A stretch of 20,000 nt of DNA, from the IMG/VR virus record IMGVR_UViG_3300002122_000002. The stretch is one strand, 5' to 3'. Positions 5,789 through 20,000 of this stretch are shown here, piece by piece. Source of the DNA: an uncultured virus (IMG/VR IMGVR_UViG_3300002122_000002). Taxonomy: Duplodnaviria > Heunggongvirae > Uroviricota > Caudoviricetes. The notes beneath the pieces were generated by a model, which saw only the letters and a list, made by a program, of their open reading frames with translations, was not told where the DNA came from and searched no databases. Made by a program: the position numbers and the translations under genes. Each line of letters starts with the position of its first letter. Position 1 is the first letter of the stretch.

Positions 5789-5805
5789 TCCATACACATG
5801 AAATG

Positions 5806-5842
5806 AAAAGGCCCACTTCATTCAAGGTGGGCCTTTTGTTTT
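5806..5842. terminator. Bidirectional intrinsic terminator between the convergent arms
   Basis: AAAAGGCCCAC (5806-5816) / GTGGGCCTTTT (5827-5837) followed by GTTTT; A-run on the other side. Confidence 0.9.
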
Positions 5843-5859
5843 CCGGGGAGGCCAGTTAC

Positions 5860-7131: not shown

Positions 7132-7151
7132 AGTTTTACCTCCTATTTGTC

Positions 7152-12475: not shown

Positions 12476-14129
12476 TAAGGTCTCTCCAATTCGGTCCCGT
12501 TTTGATTACTAGTTTCGTCGGGACATTTGGCATAAGCTTATGTCCTGCCTCTAACCACGCTTCCGTTACGATTTCCCTGTACTGTGGTATCAGGCCTTTT
12601 GGTACATCCAATACCATTTCATCGTGTACCATAATGTTTACCAGAAATTCTAGTCCTTTGGCCTTGCATAATTCCCGGGTGTAGACCAGAGCCAACTTCG
12701 TGTGGTCTGCTGCCGACCCTTGTATTGGGCCGTTTATTGCGTTCCGTGATGACTGATGGTTGTAAGGGTTTGTCCAAACCCTGCGGCCCGTTACGGTGTT
12801 TACGTAATTTACCCGCTCGGCCTGCCGCTTCTGTCTGTCCATCCAAGCGTGATACTCAGGATAGTGCTGTCGGCGTTTTCGTAGGCCGTCCTCTACTTCC
12901 TCTATATCTAGGTTATGCTCTGTTGCCAATCCCCAGGCGCTCTTGCCATAGTTCAGGCTTAAGTGAATCTTCTTGCCGCGGTCCCGATCTACTCGGAACA
13001 AATCGGCATTTACTTGATGCAGGTCTATTCCATCAATGAGTTCTTGTCGTAGAGTCTTATCCCTAGACAACTGTGCACTATAGCAGGGTTCCTGCTGGTT
13101 CTGGTCTACAACCAATAACTCGTTGCCCGGGCTTGCCAAGAAGTATGAGCGGTAAACCAATCCCTCATCCTTCTTTGGAATGTTCATCATGTTTGGGTCC
13201 GAGCAAGCCATACGGCCAGTCTCAGGTCCTGTAGTCTTCCAGTCCGGGTAAATCAAATTCCCTTCTTCTACATTGGTGGCAACAAACTTAGGACCATACT
13301 TGGCATAGGCGTCTCGGCAATGCCGCGCCCGCAAAATTCCATTTAGGAGTGTAGTCTGATGCTCATTAGCCCCCTTTAGCCAGCCCTCTAAGGACTCTTG
13401 ATCGCAGGATGAATCCTTACGAATCTTCTTAATGCCCGCAGCCTTGAGCGCCGCCTGCACTTGTGGTTGGGATTTCACGTTGAAGCCCAACCCTTCCTGT
13501 ATCCGATGCCCTTCTTCTAATAGAGCTTCGGCGTTTGCAATCCATCCATCTACATCCATGCGAATGGGCTTCATATTCATTACTGCCCACATCGCCGGTT
13601 GATCTATCTCCCAATACCACGGGAACTCATTGGCATACTCATTATAGACTATTTTCCATTGTGCCAGAGCTACCTGTCGAGTTACATCAGCGTCTTGTAT
13701 AGCGTACTGTGCCATATCTGGCGTAAGCTCTGTAGCATCCACAAATTCGTTCCGAATATCCTTCTCTAGGTACAGTCTAAGATGTCTCCGTGCTAGGGCC
13801 TGGAGGCTGAAGCTCTGATACCATCCCCCGAATAGGTCCTGCTCCACCATCATTGTGTCCCATACTGCCGGCTCCCATCCCATCGGCCAAATCCCGTGAT
13901 GGGTTAATTGGCGTATGTCGTAAATTGCATTCTGAAGTGCAATTACACCATCGTACTCCTTCAAGGCCAAAAGGTACTTCTGGCTCTCTTCCTTGTCGGC
14001 AGATAGAAAATTGTTTGTCGGGACCCCCAAACCAGATGTTGTTAGACATGCAAATTTACCTCCTGGTCTATGTAAATTTCCATAGTGTTGAAACCATTCT
14101 GTATCTAATCCAACTAAGTTAACTGACAT
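12468..14129 (-). CDS. polA: Family A DNA polymerase (3'-5' exo + pol, no 5'-3' exo)
   Basis: ExoI LDTE, ExoII NAIYD, ExoIII YAIQD; TGR..SDPN..NIP, motif A DQNQQE, motif B RxxxKxxxLxxxYG, NGPIQGSAAD, motif C VHDE. Confidence 0.95.
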   Translation of the reverse strand: MSVNLVGLDTEWFQHYGNLHRPGGKFACLTTSGLGVPTNNFLSADKEESQKYLLALKEYDGVIALQNAIYDIRQLTHHGIWPMGWEPAVWDTMMVEQDLFGGWYQSFSLQALARRHLRLYLEKDIRNEFVDATELTPDMAQYAIQDADVTRQVALAQWKIVYNEYANEFPWYWEIDQPAMWAVMNMKPIRMDVDGWIANAEALLEEGHRIQEGLGFNVKSQPQVQAALKAAGIKKIRKDSSCDQESLEGWLKGANEHQTTLLNGILRARHCRDAYAKYGPKFVATNVEEGNLIYPDWKTTGPETGRMACSDPNMMNIPKKDEGLVYRSYFLASPGNELLVVDQNQQEPCYSAQLSRDKTLRQELIDGIDLHQVNADLFRVDRDRGKKIHLSLNYGKSAWGLATEHNLDIEEVEDGLRKRRQHYPEYHAWMDRQKRQAERVNYVNTVTGRRVWTNPYNHQSSRNAINGPIQGSAADHTKLALVYTRELCKAKGLEFLVNIMVHDEMVLDVPKGLIPQYREIVTEAWLEAGHKLMPNVPTKLVIKTGPNWRDLNA

Positions 14130-14586
14130 GGGACCAGGACTTTCTATTGACTATTTTTCCCACGTTTGAACGGCATACTCTAAACATTTTTCCTATTATA
14201 TCGTGTGTAATTCTAATCTTAGCAAGTCTTCGGATTTCTCTAATGTCTTTTTCAGTAAGTTTGGCTTGCCCATTTAGCATTCCAATTGTGCCGCCTGGAC
14301 GGCGTAACCATTCCTCTACTGACTTTTTGATTTGTTGTTTTCGTCTTGCACTCATTAAAGGATATAGCATAACCATCCATTGATATGCCAATATGCCATG
14401 AATTTGTACTGTATAGAATGTTCTTCCTGTTGGGGTATGTCCACTAGTTAAGTTTCCCCGTATTTTTTGTGTTACTTTATTTGCAGAATCTAAATCTACA
14501 GTACCATAGCGTAGGCGTAACGAGTTAGCAAGATCAAAACTTCCTTCTCCCTCTAATAGCCCCACTAACCAATATAGAGTTTTCAT
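14119..14586 (-). mobile_element. Free-standing single-motif LAGLIDADG homing endonuclease with C-terminal HTH
   Basis: WLVGLLEGEGSF motif; LYPLMSARRKQQI; C-terminal NGQAKLTEKDIREIR...VCRSNVGKIVNRKSWSHV; visibly AT-rich relative to its flanks. Confidence 0.8.
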
Positions 14587-14590
14587 GTTG

Positions 14591-15751
14591 TCAACCAGAG
14601 TAGTGAGGGTACCATTCTAAAGTCCGGGAACCCCAAGTTCCATTTTCATCATTCCATCGAACTTGTGCGGCTCCGAGACTGCCCCGCTTTAGTCCCAGCC
14701 GACTGGCCCCAAACTTTAGGTAGCCCATTCCAGGTACATAAGGAAGCCCCGCCTTGTTCTTGCTGCTCATGTCTATATCAAGTAGTGCCGGGTTGTGAAC
14801 AATGATAATTAGGGATGCCTCATGTTCTGCGATGCCAGAATACCAAATTGAACTTACATCTGCTTCTCCGCCGACATAGTTTCTAGATACTCCAGCGATC
14901 AGAAGGGTGGGTATTTCACTGTTCTTAGACAGGTCGCCCATGCCCATGTAAATACTACTCATTGACTCTACGCCCGGCGGTCTACCATACAGCATCTTGC
15001 TGGCATAGTCTACGCCTATTAGCTTCAAGTCATATTCCGATGCCAGCCGCATCGCTTCGCTCTGGACTCGGGCCTCATTCATTGGTTCATCTATGATACG
15101 AATGAAGTCCATCTGTTCATTAGTTAGACCTTCTACTTGAAGCAGTCGGGCCTTCGCTAGTTCCTTTCTCATTTCCAGCGAGAAGAACGCCGAATATAGT
15201 CCGCGCTTTGCGTTCTCTGCGAGTAATCGGAGTAGAAGGGTTGTCTTACCAAGCTTCGCTGGTCCTGATACAATCGTGAGCCCAGCATAAGGAAGCCCGC
15301 CGGCATTCGCGTCAATAGGTTCGTAGCCACAGGGAGCCCAAATCTCGTCTTCCCTAAGAAGAGCAACGTCCGCCATGCTAACAAAGCCGCTCTCCCCTCT
15401 ATCCAGTTGTGATGCAAGTTGTAGAATCTTGTTGCTATCCTCACCCTCTCCCTCCTTCAACTTCTCCCCTATTCGAACAAGCCGTTTTCCTACGTCCGCC
15501 TGAACAGCGCGGGTCTGCAATAGTCGTGCCCAATCTGCGGCTTCATCAATGCTAATGCCCTCTGCTGCTAGTTCTGCAGTCCGCATAGCATCAAAGCCAT
15601 GGTTGGCCTTTAGCTCAGGAAGCCCCATCCGCCCCACATCTTGCAGGGCGGAGTTGTAGGGCTCAGAGAAATGCTCAGGGTTGAAGACGCCCGGCTCGGC
15701 CCCCTTTAGGACCAAACCAAAGCATACCTCGCTTGTTCTGCGCTGGTTCAT
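14591..15751 (-). CDS. dnaB: DnaB-like replicative helicase
   Basis: GPAKLGKTT (Walker A), FFSLEM, LIGVDY (Walker B), YSGIAEHEA. Confidence 0.85.
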   Translation of the reverse strand: MNQRRTSEVCFGLVLKGAEPGVFNPEHFSEPYNSALQDVGRMGLPELKANHGFDAMRTAELAAEGISIDEAADWARLLQTRAVQADVGKRLVRIGEKLKEGEGEDSNKILQLASQLDRGESGFVSMADVALLREDEIWAPCGYEPIDANAGGLPYAGLTIVSGPAKLGKTTLLLRLLAENAKRGLYSAFFSLEMRKELAKARLLQVEGLTNEQMDFIRIIDEPMNEARVQSEAMRLASEYDLKLIGVDYASKMLYGRPPGVESMSSIYMGMGDLSKNSEIPTLLIAGVSRNYVGGEADVSSIWYSGIAEHEASLIIIVHNPALLDIDMSSKNKAGLPYVPGMGYLKFGASRLGLKRGSLGAAQVRWNDENGTWGSRTLEWYPHYSG

Positions 15752-15754
15752 AAG

Positions 15755-16012
15755 TTACTTTTTCTTCTTCTTTGCTGGTGGTTTATAGATGCCAAGTGAC
15801 TTTAGAATGAAGGCTTCAAAATCTGAGTCTCTAGAGAACAGAACGTCATTAATGGCATCTGCCCAATAGACTTCCTTAAAGCCTTCGATTATTCCCTGTT
15901 CTATAGCTTTCTCGATTTGTGGGGCTACTCTAGTTGCTATTGCCTCAATATCAATCTTGTTCAAAACCTTCTTTGCAACTGCATCGTTTACTGCCTGTTC
16001 TACTGATTTCAT
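15755..16012 (-). CDS. Hypothetical protein with poly-Lys C-terminus
   Basis: AAGGAG SD, directly downstream of the predicted promoter. Confidence 0.75.
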   Translation of the reverse strand: MKSVEQAVNDAVAKKVLNKIDIEAIATRVAPQIEKAIEQGIIEGFKEVYWADAINDVLFSRDSDFEAFILKSLGIYKPPAKKKKK

Positions 16013-16032
16013 GTTGTTCTCTCCTTAACTAT

Positions 16033-16061
16033 ATACTAGCACACATGTCAAGGTTTGTCAA
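16033..16061 (-). promoter_or_regulatory. Sigma70-type promoter driving the helicase-polA operon
   Basis: TTGACA (16061-16056) - 17 nt - TAGTAT (16038-16033) with extended -10 TGn; second TTGACA 10 nt downstream of the first. Confidence 0.75.
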
Positions 16062-16290
16062 GTGCCTCTTGGGCGGCAACCCGACGACGAAATTCATTTC
16101 GTATGCTGGGCGGCAAACGCCTAATTTCTCTATCCATCGCCTCCAGCTTGGCTTCTAGGGCGGCGACGGACTCGCTCAACTTAATAAGTAACACAATCTC
16201 GGGCATCAGATAGGTGTCATCCGAATATCTGGCTTTCTCTTCTATCTGCAGAATAAGACGAAATAACTTAGTGCTGGCTGATTCAGTCAT
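16048..16290 (-). CDS. Hypothetical 80-aa helical protein
   Basis: AAAGGAG SD 8 nt before ATG; co-oriented with the operon. Confidence 0.65.
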   Translation of the reverse strand: MTESASTKLFRLILQIEEKARYSDDTYLMPEIVLLIKLSESVAALEAKLEAMDREIRRLPPSIRNEFRRRVAAQEALDKP

Positions 16291-16300
16291 TCTCCCTGCT

Positions 16301-16777
16301 CCTTTGTAAGAAGTGAAATCTCGCGGACGAAGTTTACCTACGGTAAGTCTACTTCTGCATCCGGGATGATTGTTGATGGACGGAAGATCACCCGGTAGTG
16401 GTATAAATCAGTGTCGGCACTTTCGATTTGTTCGGCAAAGTAAGTCACGTTGTCAGATAGGCCTAGGAAGTGCTTCTTGAATGCGTTAGGTCCAGTCTGA
16501 CATGTTACAGATAACTCACCCACTGCATCGTAATTCCCTAATGAGCATGTACCTTCAATCACCAGAATGTAATCACCATTGATGCCATTATAAAACACAA
16601 TGCGTCTGGTAATCTGAAAGTTATCGGCAGCAAGCGATAGATTGCGAGACGCCACGTCCGCTGGCTGGGCACACCCTACAAGAAATGCTGTAAACAACGC
16701 TACTGCAATCAACATCTTCTTCATTCTATGTTCTCCTCTAGTTTAATCCGTCCGCGAGATTTCACTTCCTGCAAAAG
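16301..16777. repeat. Long-range inverted repeat bracketing the lipoprotein gene (arms 16301-16331 and 16747-16777)
   Basis: Perfect 20-bp core GAAGTGAAATCTCGCGGACG (16310-16329) / CGTCCGCGAGATTTCACTTC (16749-16768); 31 positions with 3 G-U and 1 mismatch in the minus-strand RNA. Confidence 0.95.
16338..16724 (-). CDS. Conserved phage lipoprotein (family often annotated as RDF-like/beta-sandwich lipoprotein)
   Basis: Signal peptide with lipobox LVGC; ADVASRNLSLAADNF..RRIVFYNGI..KKHFLGLSDNVTYFAEQ..YRVIFRP recalls a widespread phage family; GAGGAG SD. Confidence 0.8.
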   Translation of the reverse strand: MKKMLIAVALFTAFLVGCAQPADVASRNLSLAADNFQITRRIVFYNGINGDYILVIEGTCSLGNYDAVGELSVTCQTGPNAFKKHFLGLSDNVTYFAEQIESADTDLYHYRVIFRPSTIIPDAEVDLP

Positions 16778-16921
16778 TGTTTCTGGATCATCGTATGCCA
16801 TCTGTACATGTACAGGACATAACGGCATAAAGGGTAGGTTTTCTATTCCATGTAATGCCGTTGAGCGCCCCGGACAAGCTGCACACTTAGGCATAGTGAA
16901 GACTTCCTTCCCGTCAGACAC
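16721..16921 (-). CDS. Small zinc-finger-like protein
   Basis: CAAC...CPVH; overlaps the primase stop and the lipoprotein start. Confidence 0.65.
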   Translation of the reverse strand: MSDGKEVFTMPKCAACPGRSTALHGIENLPFMPLCPVHVQMAYDDPETLLQEVKSRGRIKLEENIE

Positions 16922-17780
16922 CGATTAACTCCCTTAATAGTTGATCTGATTTACCGGCCATGGCATAGTCGTTAGGGTCTTTAAATCCGTCAGGATAGGC
17001 AAGCAGTTTCACGTGCCCTCTCCAATCTAACCCAGCGGCAAGTTCATATGCCTGTGATTCCTCGCCTTTATCTGGAATTATCATTATTTTCTTCGAGTAT
17101 TTGTTTAACCACTTCGGATCGAAACTCTTGGCTCCACCTGTTGTAGTTAGGACTGGCAAACGTAATTCGGATAGCGTCAGTGCGTCTATCATACCAAACA
17201 CTATGTATAACGGCCCAGGGTCCCGCAAAGTCAAACTCCAATCTGGGCAATAAACCATTGATCTCTGTCCTGACGGTTGAGAAAAACGTATTCCTGTTAG
17301 CTTCTCCGCTTGCGGTCCAGACCGAATAATTATCCCAATTATCTCGTTGTCCTCCGATTTTACGGGCAAAACGAGCCAACCTTCGTGCCAACCAAGTTCG
17401 CATGGTTCTATTCTCCCTTCAATGCCGCGCGTCTCAGGATACCATCTAAACGACGCATTGCGGGTTAAGACTGAATGTGCTTTAGTCACAAACTCTACCT
17501 GCTCTTCCTCGGTCGTAGGCAGGTATGGGGGACGGCCAATTGGAATGTCCCGTCGGCCTCTCGCTGTAGTGCCGGGACTGGATAACTCCGCATACAGCTT
17601 GTAGTTTGGGCCGTGGGTTGCACATTCTCCCAAACACACCCACCAGCCATCCGGGTAAACAAGTAGGCTTGCCTCTCGATCGTCATGCCAGGGGCAATTG
17701 GTCAGCAAATACCCGGCACTCATCAAATCGGCGTTCTCGCCGAGTAGTTCTCGAATTTGCTCAAATGTTACTTTGCTCAC
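16914..17780 (-). CDS. DnaG-like primase (CHC2 zinc finger + TOPRIM), non-canonical active site
   Basis: CPWHDDREASL...WWVCLGEC zinc finger; IVFGMIDAL, IIPD, KDPND; probable GTG start at 17780. Confidence 0.8.
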   Translation of the reverse strand: MSKVTFEQIRELLGENADLMSAGYLLTNCPWHDDREASLLVYPDGWWVCLGECATHGPNYKLYAELSSPGTTARGRRDIPIGRPPYLPTTEEEQVEFVTKAHSVLTRNASFRWYPETRGIEGRIEPCELGWHEGWLVLPVKSEDNEIIGIIIRSGPQAEKLTGIRFSQPSGQRSMVYCPDWSLTLRDPGPLYIVFGMIDALTLSELRLPVLTTTGGAKSFDPKWLNKYSKKIMIIPDKGEESQAYELAAGLDWRGHVKLLAYPDGFKDPNDYAMAGKSDQLLRELIGV

Positions 17781-17950
17781 TAAGGACCCCAATTTTCAGA
17801 TTGAAACATAAGAGCGTTTTGTAAACGCTCTAAAGCTGCACTGCCCGGTGTTACAATTGATTCATCCATAAGCATACCAATTGCTTCTTCTAAAGCTTCT
17901 CTAGCTATGTTTCGTTCTTCAATAGCCGCTTCAGTACAGTTATCACACAT
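17780..17950 (-). CDS. Hypothetical 56-aa protein
   Basis: GGAG 6 nt before ATG 17950 (alternative ATG 17962); MCDNC...; stop overlaps the primase start. Confidence 0.55.
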   Translation of the reverse strand: MCDNCTEAAIEERNIAREALEEAIGMLMDESIVTPGSAALERLQNALMFQSENWGP

Positions 17951-17952
17951 GT

Positions 17953-18781
17953 TAGTCTCCATTGGGGAGCAGCCAAGCTCCCAATTTAGATTTCTACCCC
18001 AATAGGGGCGTCTGCTAATTCTCGTTGTAGCCAACCATCCGCGAAGGTACCACGAAATGCCACATTTCGCCCTTGCAGAATGTTCTGTAACTCGCCCAGC
18101 ACATTTTCGCTTGGCGTCAGAGAGTCAGCATCAAAGTCGTAGCCGGTGACAGTAAGGAAGTTGATTAGCTGATCGTACCAGAACTTGCGGTCCCATACGA
18201 TGTCAACCAATCCGGTCTGTGGGTTACGTTCGAACATGTAAACCAGAGGCCGCACGGCTTCCATACCGGCCAGTTCCGTTTCCTTGCCGATCTCTGTTGC
18301 TTCCACTCGCAGTATCGCATAGAACTCGGAGTGCGGAGGGTTAGTCCAAGATGCTCCAGTTGCCGGGATAGTAACCCGCTCTGCATCCTTATTCTTGATG
18401 GTTGGAGCTAATGCCTGTCCGGTTTCTGCGTCAACTCGGGCAGCAAATCTAGAGAAGCGTAGGAGAAAGGTTCCCTCCAGCGGTCTCACTGACTTGATGT
18501 TGTCTTCCTCTGCCGTTAGCTCGATGAACACATCGTTGATGGGTTTCAATATCCAGCTTCCAAACTCCCGCGTTACGTCTGCGGGGTCCAGACGGAAGAC
18601 TTCCTTAAAGCCTTCCTTGTCGAAAATTGTAACCTTTATTTCCTTCCAGTCTTCGGGCGTTACTGCTTCTACTGGAAGAGTTGCTATACTCCCGCGCCCG
18701 CGCGGTCCATACACCTTACGTTGTTTTGATCCTGTACCCATAGTTTTCTCCTATTGTTTGGCTGCTCCCGAACGGAGACTA
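17953..18781. repeat. Long-range inverted repeat bracketing the SSB-like gene (arms 17953-17976 and 18758-18781)
   Basis: TAGTCTCCATTGGGGAGCAGCCAA vs TTGGCTGCTCCCGAACGGAGACTA: 22/24 Watson-Crick, plus one G-U and one C.C in the minus-strand RNA. Confidence 0.92.
17986..18741 (-). CDS. Hypothetical replication-module protein, candidate ssDNA-binding protein
   Basis: AGGAG SD; position between helicase and primase genes; weak resemblance to DUF669-type SSBs (PLEGTF..., LQGRNVAF). The CDS is solid but the function is a guess. Confidence 0.45.
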   Translation of the reverse strand: MGTGSKQRKVYGPRGRGSIATLPVEAVTPEDWKEIKVTIFDKEGFKEVFRLDPADVTREFGSWILKPINDVFIELTAEEDNIKSVRPLEGTFLLRFSRFAARVDAETGQALAPTIKNKDAERVTIPATGASWTNPPHSEFYAILRVEATEIGKETELAGMEAVRPLVYMFERNPQTGLVDIVWDRKFWYDQLINFLTVTGYDFDADSLTPSENVLGELQNILQGRNVAFRGTFADGWLQRELADAPIGVEI

Positions 18782-18859
18782 GTCTCTTGACTTTACCTCA
18801 ATATAATTATATATAGACCAAATCAGAAAAAGCACTGAAACTAATAGTAAAATTGTCAT
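18779..18859 (-). CDS. 26-aa single-TM peptide; not in ORF track
   Basis: MTILLLVSVLFLIWSIYNYIEVKSRD*; TAAATG junction with the upstream gene, GAGGA SD 8 nt upstream. Confidence 0.6.
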   Translation of the reverse strand: MTILLLVSVLFLIWSIYNYIEVKSRD

Positions 18860-19357
18860 TTAGTTTTCCTCGTCTTCTGGTCCCCAGGGCGTTCTATCAC
18901 TCAAATCAGGACCGTTATCGTTTGGGGCTGAACTTGCATACCATCGAGTTGCTTCTTCTGCTCTCTCTTTCATCGACAGTTTATTCCATCTAGCTACTTC
19001 CTTATTGTGCTCTAGCCTATTGGTCTCCAGTATGTAGTTATGCTTATCTTTAGCGCAGGTTGGACAAGGTAGCCGATATATATCATCGTGTAAAATATGT
19101 GTATAATAATTTTTCCTAAAGTCTGGATCGCGCTCTTCCGCTTCCGTCCATTGCCAACGGTAAAAATCCTTACCACAGATAGGACAGACTAGAGGTTCAT
19201 CGTAGTGAATGTAATGGCCCGCCGAGTCTTTGATAGTAAGTCCTAGGTCCGAACGTATGGCTTTACTGTTCTTGCCGGGTCTCTGGAAAAATCTGTATAT
19301 CTGAATTACCCCATACCAGAATGCCGCCCATATTAATACGTTAGTCCAGAATTCCAT
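18860..19357 (-). CDS. Membrane-anchored zinc-ribbon protein
   Basis: N-terminal TM helix; CPIC...CPTC; AAGGAG SD. Confidence 0.7.
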   Translation of the reverse strand: MEFWTNVLIWAAFWYGVIQIYRFFQRPGKNSKAIRSDLGLTIKDSAGHYIHYDEPLVCPICGKDFYRWQWTEAEERDPDFRKNYYTHILHDDIYRLPCPTCAKDKHNYILETNRLEHNKEVARWNKLSMKERAEEATRWYASSAPNDNGPDLSDRTPWGPEDEEN

Positions 19358-20000
19358 TAATTATCTCTCCTTGTACTTGCATTTCTATTTGTTCCATATC
19401 TATTGTTGCACTCAAGATTTGACGCTTTTGATTAATCGTATAATCCATTGGCTCATCGAAAGTACCCACAGCCATGAGATAGTACGCAGTGACAGCATTC
19501 TTTTGTCCAATACGATCAAGGCGTCCCTCTGCTTGGAATTCCAAAGCAGGAGTCCACTGTCTCTCAACAAAGAGGATTGTATTGCTTTCAATGTCTCCAA
19601 TTCCAAATAAGTCAATACCCTCTCCGCCTGCTTTGTTAATAACTGCCACTCGCGGACGTAATCCTGTCTGGAAGCCGAATGTAAGGGCGTCTCGTCTCTC
19701 GGGCGAAAGTCTCCCATCAATAGAAAAGGAACCATATTCTGCCAACTCCCTCTTTAAGTAATCAACTACATCTAGATGATGAGCATACAGTACGATCTTA
19801 ACATTGGGTTCCGACTGCTCAAAGAAATCATGCACCCACTCTACCGCCACTTTAGCTTTCTCCCGCCCAATTATGTGCCACGCATCCATGATCTTAGTCA
19901 TGGCATTGGTTCGGTTAATCCCAATCAAAGCTTCTCTGTATTCCTCCGTCTTGATGTCCGCCGGAAGAAGAACCCTTTGTAGGGATGGTAATTCCTCCAG
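19341..20000 (-). CDS. SNF2/HARP-like helicase, C-terminal domain (5' truncated by the window)
   Basis: Frame open to 20000 (LEELPSLQR...); KIVLYAHH, IDG, AGGEGIDL, FVERQWTP, QAEGRLDRIGQ. Confidence 0.9.
   Translation of the reverse strand: MEELPSLQRVLLPADIKTEEYREALIGINRTNAMTKIMDAWHIIGREKAKVAVEWVHDFFEQSEPNVKIVLYAHHLDVVDYLKRELAEYGSFSIDGRLSPERRDALTFGFQTGLRPRVAVINKAGGEGIDLFGIGDIESNTILFVERQWTPALEFQAEGRLDRIGQKNAVTAYYLMAVGTFDEPMDYTINQKRQILSATIDMEQIEMQVQGEIINGILD

Follow-up and report, generated by a model that had tools for sequence, protein, structure and literature searches.

Gene-enclosing inverted repeats in the replication module of an uncultured phage as possible mRNA duplexes over downstream ribosome-binding sites

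Long-range RNA pairing is a textbook means of control in RNA phages and rRNA operons; the ‘Min Jou’ interaction of the MS2 replicase and the long-range coupling in rplJL are well-known cases. Within DNA-phage operons such pairing is, to our knowledge, hardly documented, and promoters, terminators and local hairpins are the usual explanation there. Here we analysed a stretch of 20,000 nt (the window) of the uncultured tailed phage IMGVR_UViG_3300002122_000002, in which an inverted repeat of 31 positions, here termed I1, surrounds a complete lipoprotein gene, while a second repeat, I2, surrounds p251, a core gene beside the primase gene. Both may act as mRNA duplexes, each covering the Shine–Dalgarno (SD) sequence of the gene that follows the enclosed one.

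Several described systems share parts of this design. The 16S and 23S rRNAs are flanked by RNase III stems, and cutting of the duplex excises the functional unit; this is likewise a long-range duplex around a functional unit, although what is enclosed is non-coding RNA. RNase III also cuts the polycistronic mRNAs of phage T7, where the remaining stem stabilizes the 3′ ends, but the T7 sites are local hairpins between genes, unlike I1 and I2. In the full-length hok mRNA, a 5′–3′ fold-back inhibits the membrane toxin; I1 resembles it in the 5′–3′ duplex around a loop a few hundred nucleotides long and in the kind of gene enclosed, which encodes an envelope-active protein with toxicity on overproduction, but no antisense RNA or 3′ trimming logic was seen here, and the enclosed ribosome-binding site (RBS) lies in the loop. 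Invertons and the invertible segments of phages (Hin, Gin, Cin; PhaseFinder-type switches) also have inverted repeats of similar length around a surface-protein determinant; unlike in these, no invertase, second orientation or segment promoter was found, and the arms are not shared recombination sites.

Two precedents are closer. In the icaR mRNA of Staphylococcus aureus, a duplex between the 5′ and 3′ untranslated regions blocks the SD sequence and is cut by RNase III (PMC3868564). The likeness lies in a duplex formed from both sides of a whole coding region and over an SD sequence, with initiation blocked in icaR, whereas icaR differs in masking the enclosed gene's own SD sequence, in its monocistronic mRNA and in its 7-nt core motif (PMC3868564). 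Here, in contrast, the helices are 24–31 bp long and would lie in a polycistronic phage mRNA, over the SD sequence of the next gene and with the 5′ strand in, or at the end of, a translated open reading frame (ORF). The second precedent is translational coupling by RNA unfolding, i.e. MS2 coat/lysis, the coat/replicase long-distance pairing, f1 genes VII/IX and rpmI–rplT (PMC12548453), where, as here, an RBS is paired with upstream sequence that ribosomes traverse or stop on. The cases in that review concern neighbouring genes, and the words ‘long-range’ and ‘non-adjacent’ occur in it 0 times; here a complete cistron is looped out, so that coupling would skip a gene, and the helices are far longer than usual.

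Among the matches listed in our literature search, no title or abstract dealt with a cistron-enclosing duplex in a DNA-phage operon, which is not proof of absence. Compared with the known long-range RNA controls, the new elements would be the enclosure of a complete cistron in a DNA-phage operon, the masking of the next gene and the unusual length. Two adjacent long duplexes, one of them conserved by compensatory change, would provide a concrete case of gene-skipping coupling, and the same case would cover the possible excision of single cistrons by RNase III. The finding also suggests how an operon may accommodate an accessory insert while downstream control is kept.

Two repeats, each around one gene

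A repeat search of the window placed the I1 arms at 16303–16329 and 16749–16775 (27 nt, 93 % complementary, spacing 419 nt). Read on the minus strand, 16777–16747 (CUUUUGCAGGAAGUGAAAUCUCGCGGACGGA) pairs with 16331–16301 over 31 positions, i.e. 27 Watson–Crick pairs, three G–U pairs and one C·A, including a perfect core of 20 bp, and the loop of 415 nt contains the entire 128-aa lipoprotein ORF. The search and the pairing thus reproduced the 31-bp stem, 20-bp core and 415-nt loop described by the first-pass annotation from the sequence alone. Its statement that the end of the stem covers AAAGG of the next SD sequence was likewise confirmed: the 3′ arm overlaps these bases of the SD sequence AAAGGAG of p80 (16305–16299), 8 nt before the ATG (16290), and it also occupies 31 of the 47 intergenic bases upstream of p80.

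The I1 repeat is real and far beyond chance. A 21-mer from its core, allowing up to three mismatches, matched two sites in the window, a count reached by none of 200 shuffles. When 51,223 bp of the phage were searched for inverted repeats of at least 18 nt with at least 85 % match and arms at most 3 kb apart, only I1 (25/27) and I2 (22/24) passed, while the best repeat in 30 first-order Markov shuffles was 21/24 and all others reached at most 19/21. I1 ranks first among the inverted repeats of the 58.9-kb record G002, and I1 and I2 top the list there. The same arrangement, without differences, is present in G001, in G002 and in L022, a third assembly, the stretch containing it occurs with identical sequence in 20 runs from 13 studies, and both arms are spanned by Logan contigs of four runs from four studies. 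An assembly artefact, which the first-pass annotation had named as a refuting outcome, is therefore ruled out.

I2 ranks second among the repeats of the genome and is located 1.2 kb upstream of I1, with its nearer arm beyond the primase gene. Its arms (18781–18758 and 17976–17953, 22/24 matching, 781 nt apart) bracket p251 exactly, within the two short intergenic spacers of that gene, and the 3′ arm contains the whole SD sequence GGAG (17960–17957) of p56, the 56-aa ORF that follows p251. I1 and I2 have no sequence in common.

Both stems are predicted to be stable, with duplex energies of −46.7 kcal/mol for I1 and −43.6 kcal/mol for the 24 pairs of I2. In folds of 1.3-kb transcripts, pair probabilities were 0.68–1.0 at 30 of the 31 I1 positions and near 1 for I1, I2 and the corresponding stem of the related locus L024 described below, and the SD bases of I1 (AAAGG) and I2 (GGAG) were predicted to be paired at probabilities of 0.66–1.0. 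The I1 stem was also present in the minimum-energy fold of a 541-nt segment, and folding gave no competing local structure for its arms. In a promoter and terminator scan, counts equalled the shuffle level and no promoter-like or terminator-like site was found between the arms of I1 or of I2, and we infer that the arms are co-transcribed in one mRNA. Searching the window from 14000 to 20000 against Rfam gave 0 matches at E up to 1.

Conservation of I2 was analysed with an ungapped flank-to-flank helix score around the p251 homologues of 42 loci, against a null of 1706 mismatched flank pairs (1 % level 11.5, maximum 14.5). RNAduplex on 100-nt flanks had been tried and was replaced by this score, since long bulged extensions inflated its energies and made it too noisy. 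The window scored 20.5, L023/L024 18.5, L070/L071 13 and L033 12. L023 and L024, the closest relatives (71 % amino acid identity), have an 18/19 repeat at the same places with a different sequence; including G–U, the stem comprises 23 pairs, and the L024 duplex has an energy of −34.0 kcal/mol. L050 (62 % identity) retains the inner helix up to the contig end, and the outer helix of L024 is rebuilt in a shifted register. In the alignment of these loci (A5), nine of nine inner pairs are paired in 36 of 36 cells, two of them changed on both sides (A–U to G–C and C–G to U–A) and none on one side only, while slid registers paired in only 22–56 %. The inner helix of I2 has thus been kept in two diverged relatives via two compensatory double changes. 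Since the covarying bases of the I2 3′ arm sit in the loop of a local alternative hairpin, they respond to the long-range partner and not to that hairpin.

Table 1. Positions of the repeat arms and of the genes at and between them, in window coordinates
Feature	Position	Strand	Description
I1 5′ arm	16747..16777	−	C-terminal codons LLQEVKSRGR of the 66-aa gene (p66)
I1 3′ arm	16301..16331	−	Intergenic; begins 6 nt past the lipoprotein stop, ends 10 nt short of the p80 ATG
I2 5′ arm	18758..18781	−	Opens with the stop codon (TAG) of the preceding ORF; ends 16 nt short of the p251 ATG
I2 3′ arm	17953..17976	−	Begins 9 nt past the p251 stop; ends 2 nt short of the ATG at 17950
Lipoprotein	16338..16724	−	128 aa; lipobox LVGC; Pfam PF25682 Phage_VG64 / phrog_478
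p66	16721..16921	−	66 aa, Cys-rich, zinc-finger-like; downstream of primase
p80	16048..16290	−	80 aa; SD sequence partly within the I1 3′ arm
p251	17986..18741	−	Conserved 251-aa core gene beside primase, in the I2 loop
p56	17780..17950	−	56-aa ORF; RBS within the I2 3′ arm
Small ORF	18779..18859	−	26 aa, hydrophobic (MTILLLVSVLFLIWSIYNYIEVKSRD); good SD sequence; ends at the I2 base

A possible role in gene-skipping translational coupling

The stems I1, I2 and that of L024 have a common geometry. Each loops out one cistron, and each 3′ arm stops 2–10 nt short of the following start codon and includes the next SD sequence entirely or in part. The 5′ arm lies within the upstream ORF (I1), on its stop codon (I2 in the window and in G002) or 2–4 nt after it (L024). 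In all three, the outer helix provides the pairing with the SD sequence, and its partner strand is the stretch of the 5′ arm that an approaching or terminating ribosome covers first; in I1, ribosomes translating p66 must unwind the 5′ arm.

The explanation that we lean towards, at a little under even confidence, is that the repeats form mRNA duplexes around a cistron and mask the RBS that follows; upstream translation would open them, and they would be likely substrates of RNase III. The minus-strand RNA stem enclosing the lipoprotein gene, which had been the primary reading of the first-pass annotation, holds and forms the core of this explanation. As long as the preceding ORF is untranslated, a helix of 24–31 bp would form and silence the gene after the next. 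The outer helix would be unwound, and the SD sequence freed, by ribosomes that elongate along p66 or that terminate at the stop codon at the I2 base; this would be a form of translational coupling by RNA unfolding in which one gene is leapfrogged. Such coupling would be the most economical reading of the common design. The formed helix would also offer a substrate of a length that RNase III cuts. Helices of 24–31 bp are within the size range of this enzyme, and I1, with its arms on the same strand and a 20-bp perfect core in 31 pairs, reaches the substrate length of about two turns (about 20 bp), as do the 24 pairs of I2. After cleavage, the enclosed cistron would be freed as an individual mRNA whose ends are paired, namely that of the accessory lipoprotein (I1), whose homologue in mycobacteriophage D29 is cytotoxic when over-expressed, or that of a probable single-stranded DNA-binding protein (SSB; I2).

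Several points weigh against this explanation. Of the 21 runs listed, none is an RNA run containing the phage, and formation, cleavage and coupling are predictions. I1 has no diverged relative and the lipoprotein gene occurs at this site only in this phage, so the covariation supports I2 and extends to I1 by analogy only. The covariation test itself had four rows, and 24 of 500 shuffles reached the observed score. Most of the 42 p251 loci score at null level, L025 and L026 (58–60 % identity) have 18 nt between the p251 gene and the primase gene and no stem, and the I2 5′ arm of G002 lies in a diverged mosaic patch with two uncompensated changes (21/24). Energies are about equal on both strands (I1, −46.7 sense and −44.5 antisense; I2, −43.6 and −45.0 kcal/mol), so the G–U pairs do not point to the mRNA strand in particular, and the z-score for the fold of the I1 region as a whole is a modest −2.0. 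Finally, the lipoprotein's own SD sequence sits in the I1 loop, outside the stem, so that silencing of the lipoprotein by the stem is not obvious. A strand test by counts of G–U against A·C was tried and discarded, as there were too few positions and end-extension favoured G–U.

It is tempting to speculate further that the lineage employs cistron-enclosing duplexes to control expression within a DNA-phage operon, such that translation of gene N would unmask gene N+2 while N+1 is looped out and excisable by RNase III, although this further claim appears doubtful to us. As a panhandle mRNA, the excised N+1 would have a stability and a yield of its own, for a protein needed in bulk (the probable SSB) or for a newly acquired and potentially toxic one (the lipoprotein). 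In the case of I1, coupling would have been rewired around a fresh insert by placing an inverted copy of a piece of the upstream ORF before the next RBS. In a census of the relatives (516 kb), repeats with at least 17 matches occurred at about the chance rate outside this phage and L023/L024, so gene-enclosing stems are not a general habit of the wider group.

Alternative explanations for the repeats

For the I1 stem itself, a functionless inverted duplication is a serious rival, even if on balance an unlikely one. About 30–40 nt of the p66 3′ end would have been copied in inverted orientation behind the lipoprotein gene, by template switching or illegitimate recombination during the acquisition of accessory genes, and would be a scar that has not decayed. 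Consistent with this, I1 is unique to this phage, its 20-mer core being found in no other viral contig, and the homologues of p66 in loci without the lipoprotein gene align across the arm (LLQEVKSRGR versus LMRLVKAYGG and LMQLVLAKKR), so that the coding arm is native and the intergenic arm the derived copy. The first-pass annotation had asked whether relatives lacking the lipoprotein keep one arm; they have homologous codons there. Moreover, all four non-Watson–Crick positions of I1 are transitions, and weak similarity extends for a few bases past each end, the pattern of a duplication that is ageing. Neither strand is more stable than the other, the phage has genes for a UvsX-like recombinase, for exonucleases and for a RuvC-like resolvase, and the region is mosaic (84- and 510-nt indels plus the diverged patch). 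Against a mere scar stands the adjacent I2, which has the same architecture and is kept by compensatory change, so such stems appear to be selected in this lineage. The I1 3′ arm also lies on the next SD sequence with the 5′ arm in a translated ORF, and since, from what is established about RNase III and ribosome binding, a 20-bp perfect duplex over an RBS of an operon mRNA would have consequences, strict neutrality is unlikely. No decay is seen across the 20 runs from 13 studies, yet there is almost no divergence anywhere.

The repeats could instead act as DNA, i.e. as stems in single-stranded replication or recombination intermediates or as paired protein-binding sites, which we consider improbable. 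Compensatory change would maintain base pairing in DNA no less than in RNA, the stability of the two strands is equal and the repeats lie among replication genes. Nevertheless, the absence of a common sequence in I1 and I2 argues against a protein that binds both, loops as large as 415 and 781 nt do not allow cruciform extrusion, and the consistent register with stop codons and SD sequences lacks a rationale at the level of DNA.

The first-pass annotation had also suggested an invertible ON/OFF cassette, in which site-specific or homologous recombination would flip the 415-bp segment and turn off the lipoprotein gene. Inverted repeats of 27–31 bp around a complete surface-protein gene, in a phage with general recombination genes, would fit such a switch. 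However, its remark that no recombinase is visible could be extended to the genomes: neither Resolvase (PF00239) nor Phage_integrase (PF00589) gave a match in G001 (78 % complete) or G002 (93 % complete), a host enzyme being possible, while the profile controls were positive in 12 and 14 of 14 genomes. The orientation is the same in all four assemblies, and no inversion joint was found in the contigs of four runs from four studies, in which rare variants can be missed; the spanning contigs, 11.6 kb in three runs and 1953 nt in the fourth, have one orientation, and their only joint is an unrelated 84-nt skip. The segment holds no promoter-like site, a flip would swap the tail of the 66-aa protein, and I2, of the same design, brackets a core replication gene for which flipping would be senseless. 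Inversion is therefore very improbable.

Little more can be said for the other suggestion of the first-pass annotation, i.e. that the arms are the terminal inverted repeats of a mobile cassette that brought in the lipoprotein gene. The gene is indeed an accessory insert. Among the 93 loci fetched via the primase (92 relatives plus copies of the phage itself), which have a conserved order of p165, p251, primase, variable small genes, helicase and polymerase, a lipoprotein gene at the p66–p80 site occurs in this phage only, while L093 has one elsewhere; in relatives lacking it, the p66 homologue is followed directly by the helicase (L025, L032) or by a homologue of p85 (L024). Homologues of the lipoprotein are also patchily spread over 936 phage records. 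On the other hand, the 5′ arm lies in native coding sequence that aligns with insert-free relatives, and since the insert relative to L024 comprises both the lipoprotein gene and p80, the 3′ arm is in mid-insert and not at its boundary. Among viral contigs, the core of the arm is confined to this phage, with just two occurrences in the window, and no target-site duplication is present, as the bases that immediately flank the two arms are not the same.

Homologues of the lipoprotein are not flanked in this way either. The flank test covered 31 loci of the family, i.e. 28 others after removal of two with short flanks and of the phage's own, with 150-nt flanks that still include the true gene ends in two loci where the ends are a few codons off. 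None of the 28 scored above the null (best helix score 13.0, equal to the 1 % level of the null, whose maximum was 14.0), compared with 26.5 for the lipoprotein gene of this phage, and gene 64 of D29 has no enclosing repeat. A nucleotide search of the region gave matches confined to the lipoprotein coding sequence (CDS), the similarity to other loci of the family ends within it, and no common flanks or neighbour genes pointed to a donor in 30 such loci. The arms can hardly be cassette ends, and DNA-level roles, inversion and cassette ends are clearly unlikely even when taken together.

Enclosed proteins and the surrounding module

The lipoprotein matches PF25682 with 164.5 bits (cut-off 27; E about 1e-48) and is 57 % identical to gp64 of mycobacteriophage D29, VGC included; Cys18 is invariant in a 24-sequence alignment of the VG64 family. 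Its ATG overlaps the TGA of p66 (ATGA). D29 gp64 is described as a dispensable, patchily distributed lipoprotein that is toxic on expression and whose lipobox mutation suppresses lysis defects (bioRxiv 10.64898/2026.08.27.747656). By analogy, this toxicity and dispensability would provide a motive for tight control of the lipoprotein region. A Foldseek search with the lipoprotein structure gave no match at E up to 1e-3, and structural comparison gave only weak matches to Sm/Hfq-like barrels (Z up to 4.0), which we leave uninterpreted.

Family members also carry the label ‘recombination directionality factor’ (RDF). We rejected this function, which would call for a cytoplasmic protein that binds DNA or integrase and acts together with an integrase, for the lipoprotein. 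The label occurs in PHROGs and in RefSeq copies only, D29 gene 64 included, while the GenBank originals read hypothetical or membrane protein. It is doubtful because a signal peptide and lipobox stand at the start of every VG64 homologue examined (29/29); neither G001 nor G002 has an integrase match. Therefore, the RDF label is probably a propagated error and the VG64 proteins are conserved phage lipoproteins.

For p251, neither Pfam, PHROG nor NCBIfam gave a match and Foldseek found nothing at E up to 1e-3. Its AlphaFold (AF2) model (predicted local distance difference test score 91) has two barrels resembling the oligonucleotide/oligosaccharide-binding (OB) fold. The best VIA-align match was PrgE of pCF10 (Z 7.8, root-mean-square deviation 3.5, 101 residues aligned), followed by many OB folds of SSB, RPA and EF-P proteins. 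With moderate support from this model, p251 is probably a phage ssDNA-binding protein and would probably represent a new family of these.

The small hydrophobic ORF upstream of p251 lies in an 84-nt segment (18782–18865) that only part of the population carries: in each of the four runs, a contig without it reaches between roughly a fifth and a quarter of the local depth, and it is missing from G002. With or without the segment, a TAG stop forms the first bases of the I2 5′ arm. The ORF ends in ...EVKSRD and the I1 arm of p66 encodes ...EVKSRGR (18799–18785 and 16765–16751), both at or just before a 5′ arm and with different codons at every position of the five common residues; this may be chance or a nascent-peptide signal.

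The window represents the replication module of a lytic phage from groundwater, soil and sediment metagenomes. On the minus strand, a SNF2-type helicase gene is followed by p165, the 26-aa small ORF, p251, p56, primase and p66, and then by the lipoprotein gene, p80, p85, a DnaB-like helicase, a HNH endonuclease and DNA polymerase; the UvsX-like recombinase, exonucleases and RuvC-like resolvase are encoded after the polymerase. Homologues of p66 were found in L024, L025, L026, L032 and L033. No relative of the phage in GenBank was matched by tblastn with the primase, and none of four small proteins had a NCBIfam match. For p80 there was no family match, and its relatives in viral contigs were limited to the same phage. 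An identical 30-nt piece of p80 (16138–16167) with unrelated sequence on both flanks occurs in short contigs of all four runs, and this sequence hints that relatives of p80 exist in other phages of the same habitats.

The HNH endonuclease gene (14119–14586) lies between the genes for the DnaB-like helicase and DNA polymerase, and since it is absent between them in L024 and L025, it is likely a free-standing homing endonuclease insert. In G002 (44515), the SNF2-type helicase gene is shorter by 510 nt, or 170 codons in frame, corresponding to 19402–19910 of the window; the Helicase_C domain found there is thereby missing, and G002 has about 325 additional bases near window position 7150; either strain variation or assembly collapse would account for these differences.

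Two local repeats were also noted. At 5800–5843, a 17-nt inverted repeat with a 10-nt loop, flanked by A and T runs, separates the convergent endolysin-side (+) and replication-side (−) modules and looks like a bidirectional terminator. In G002, the strongest local hairpin of the genome is a 19/20 inverted repeat with a 54-nt spacer (22801–22894), located in a short intergenic region between two small ORFs.

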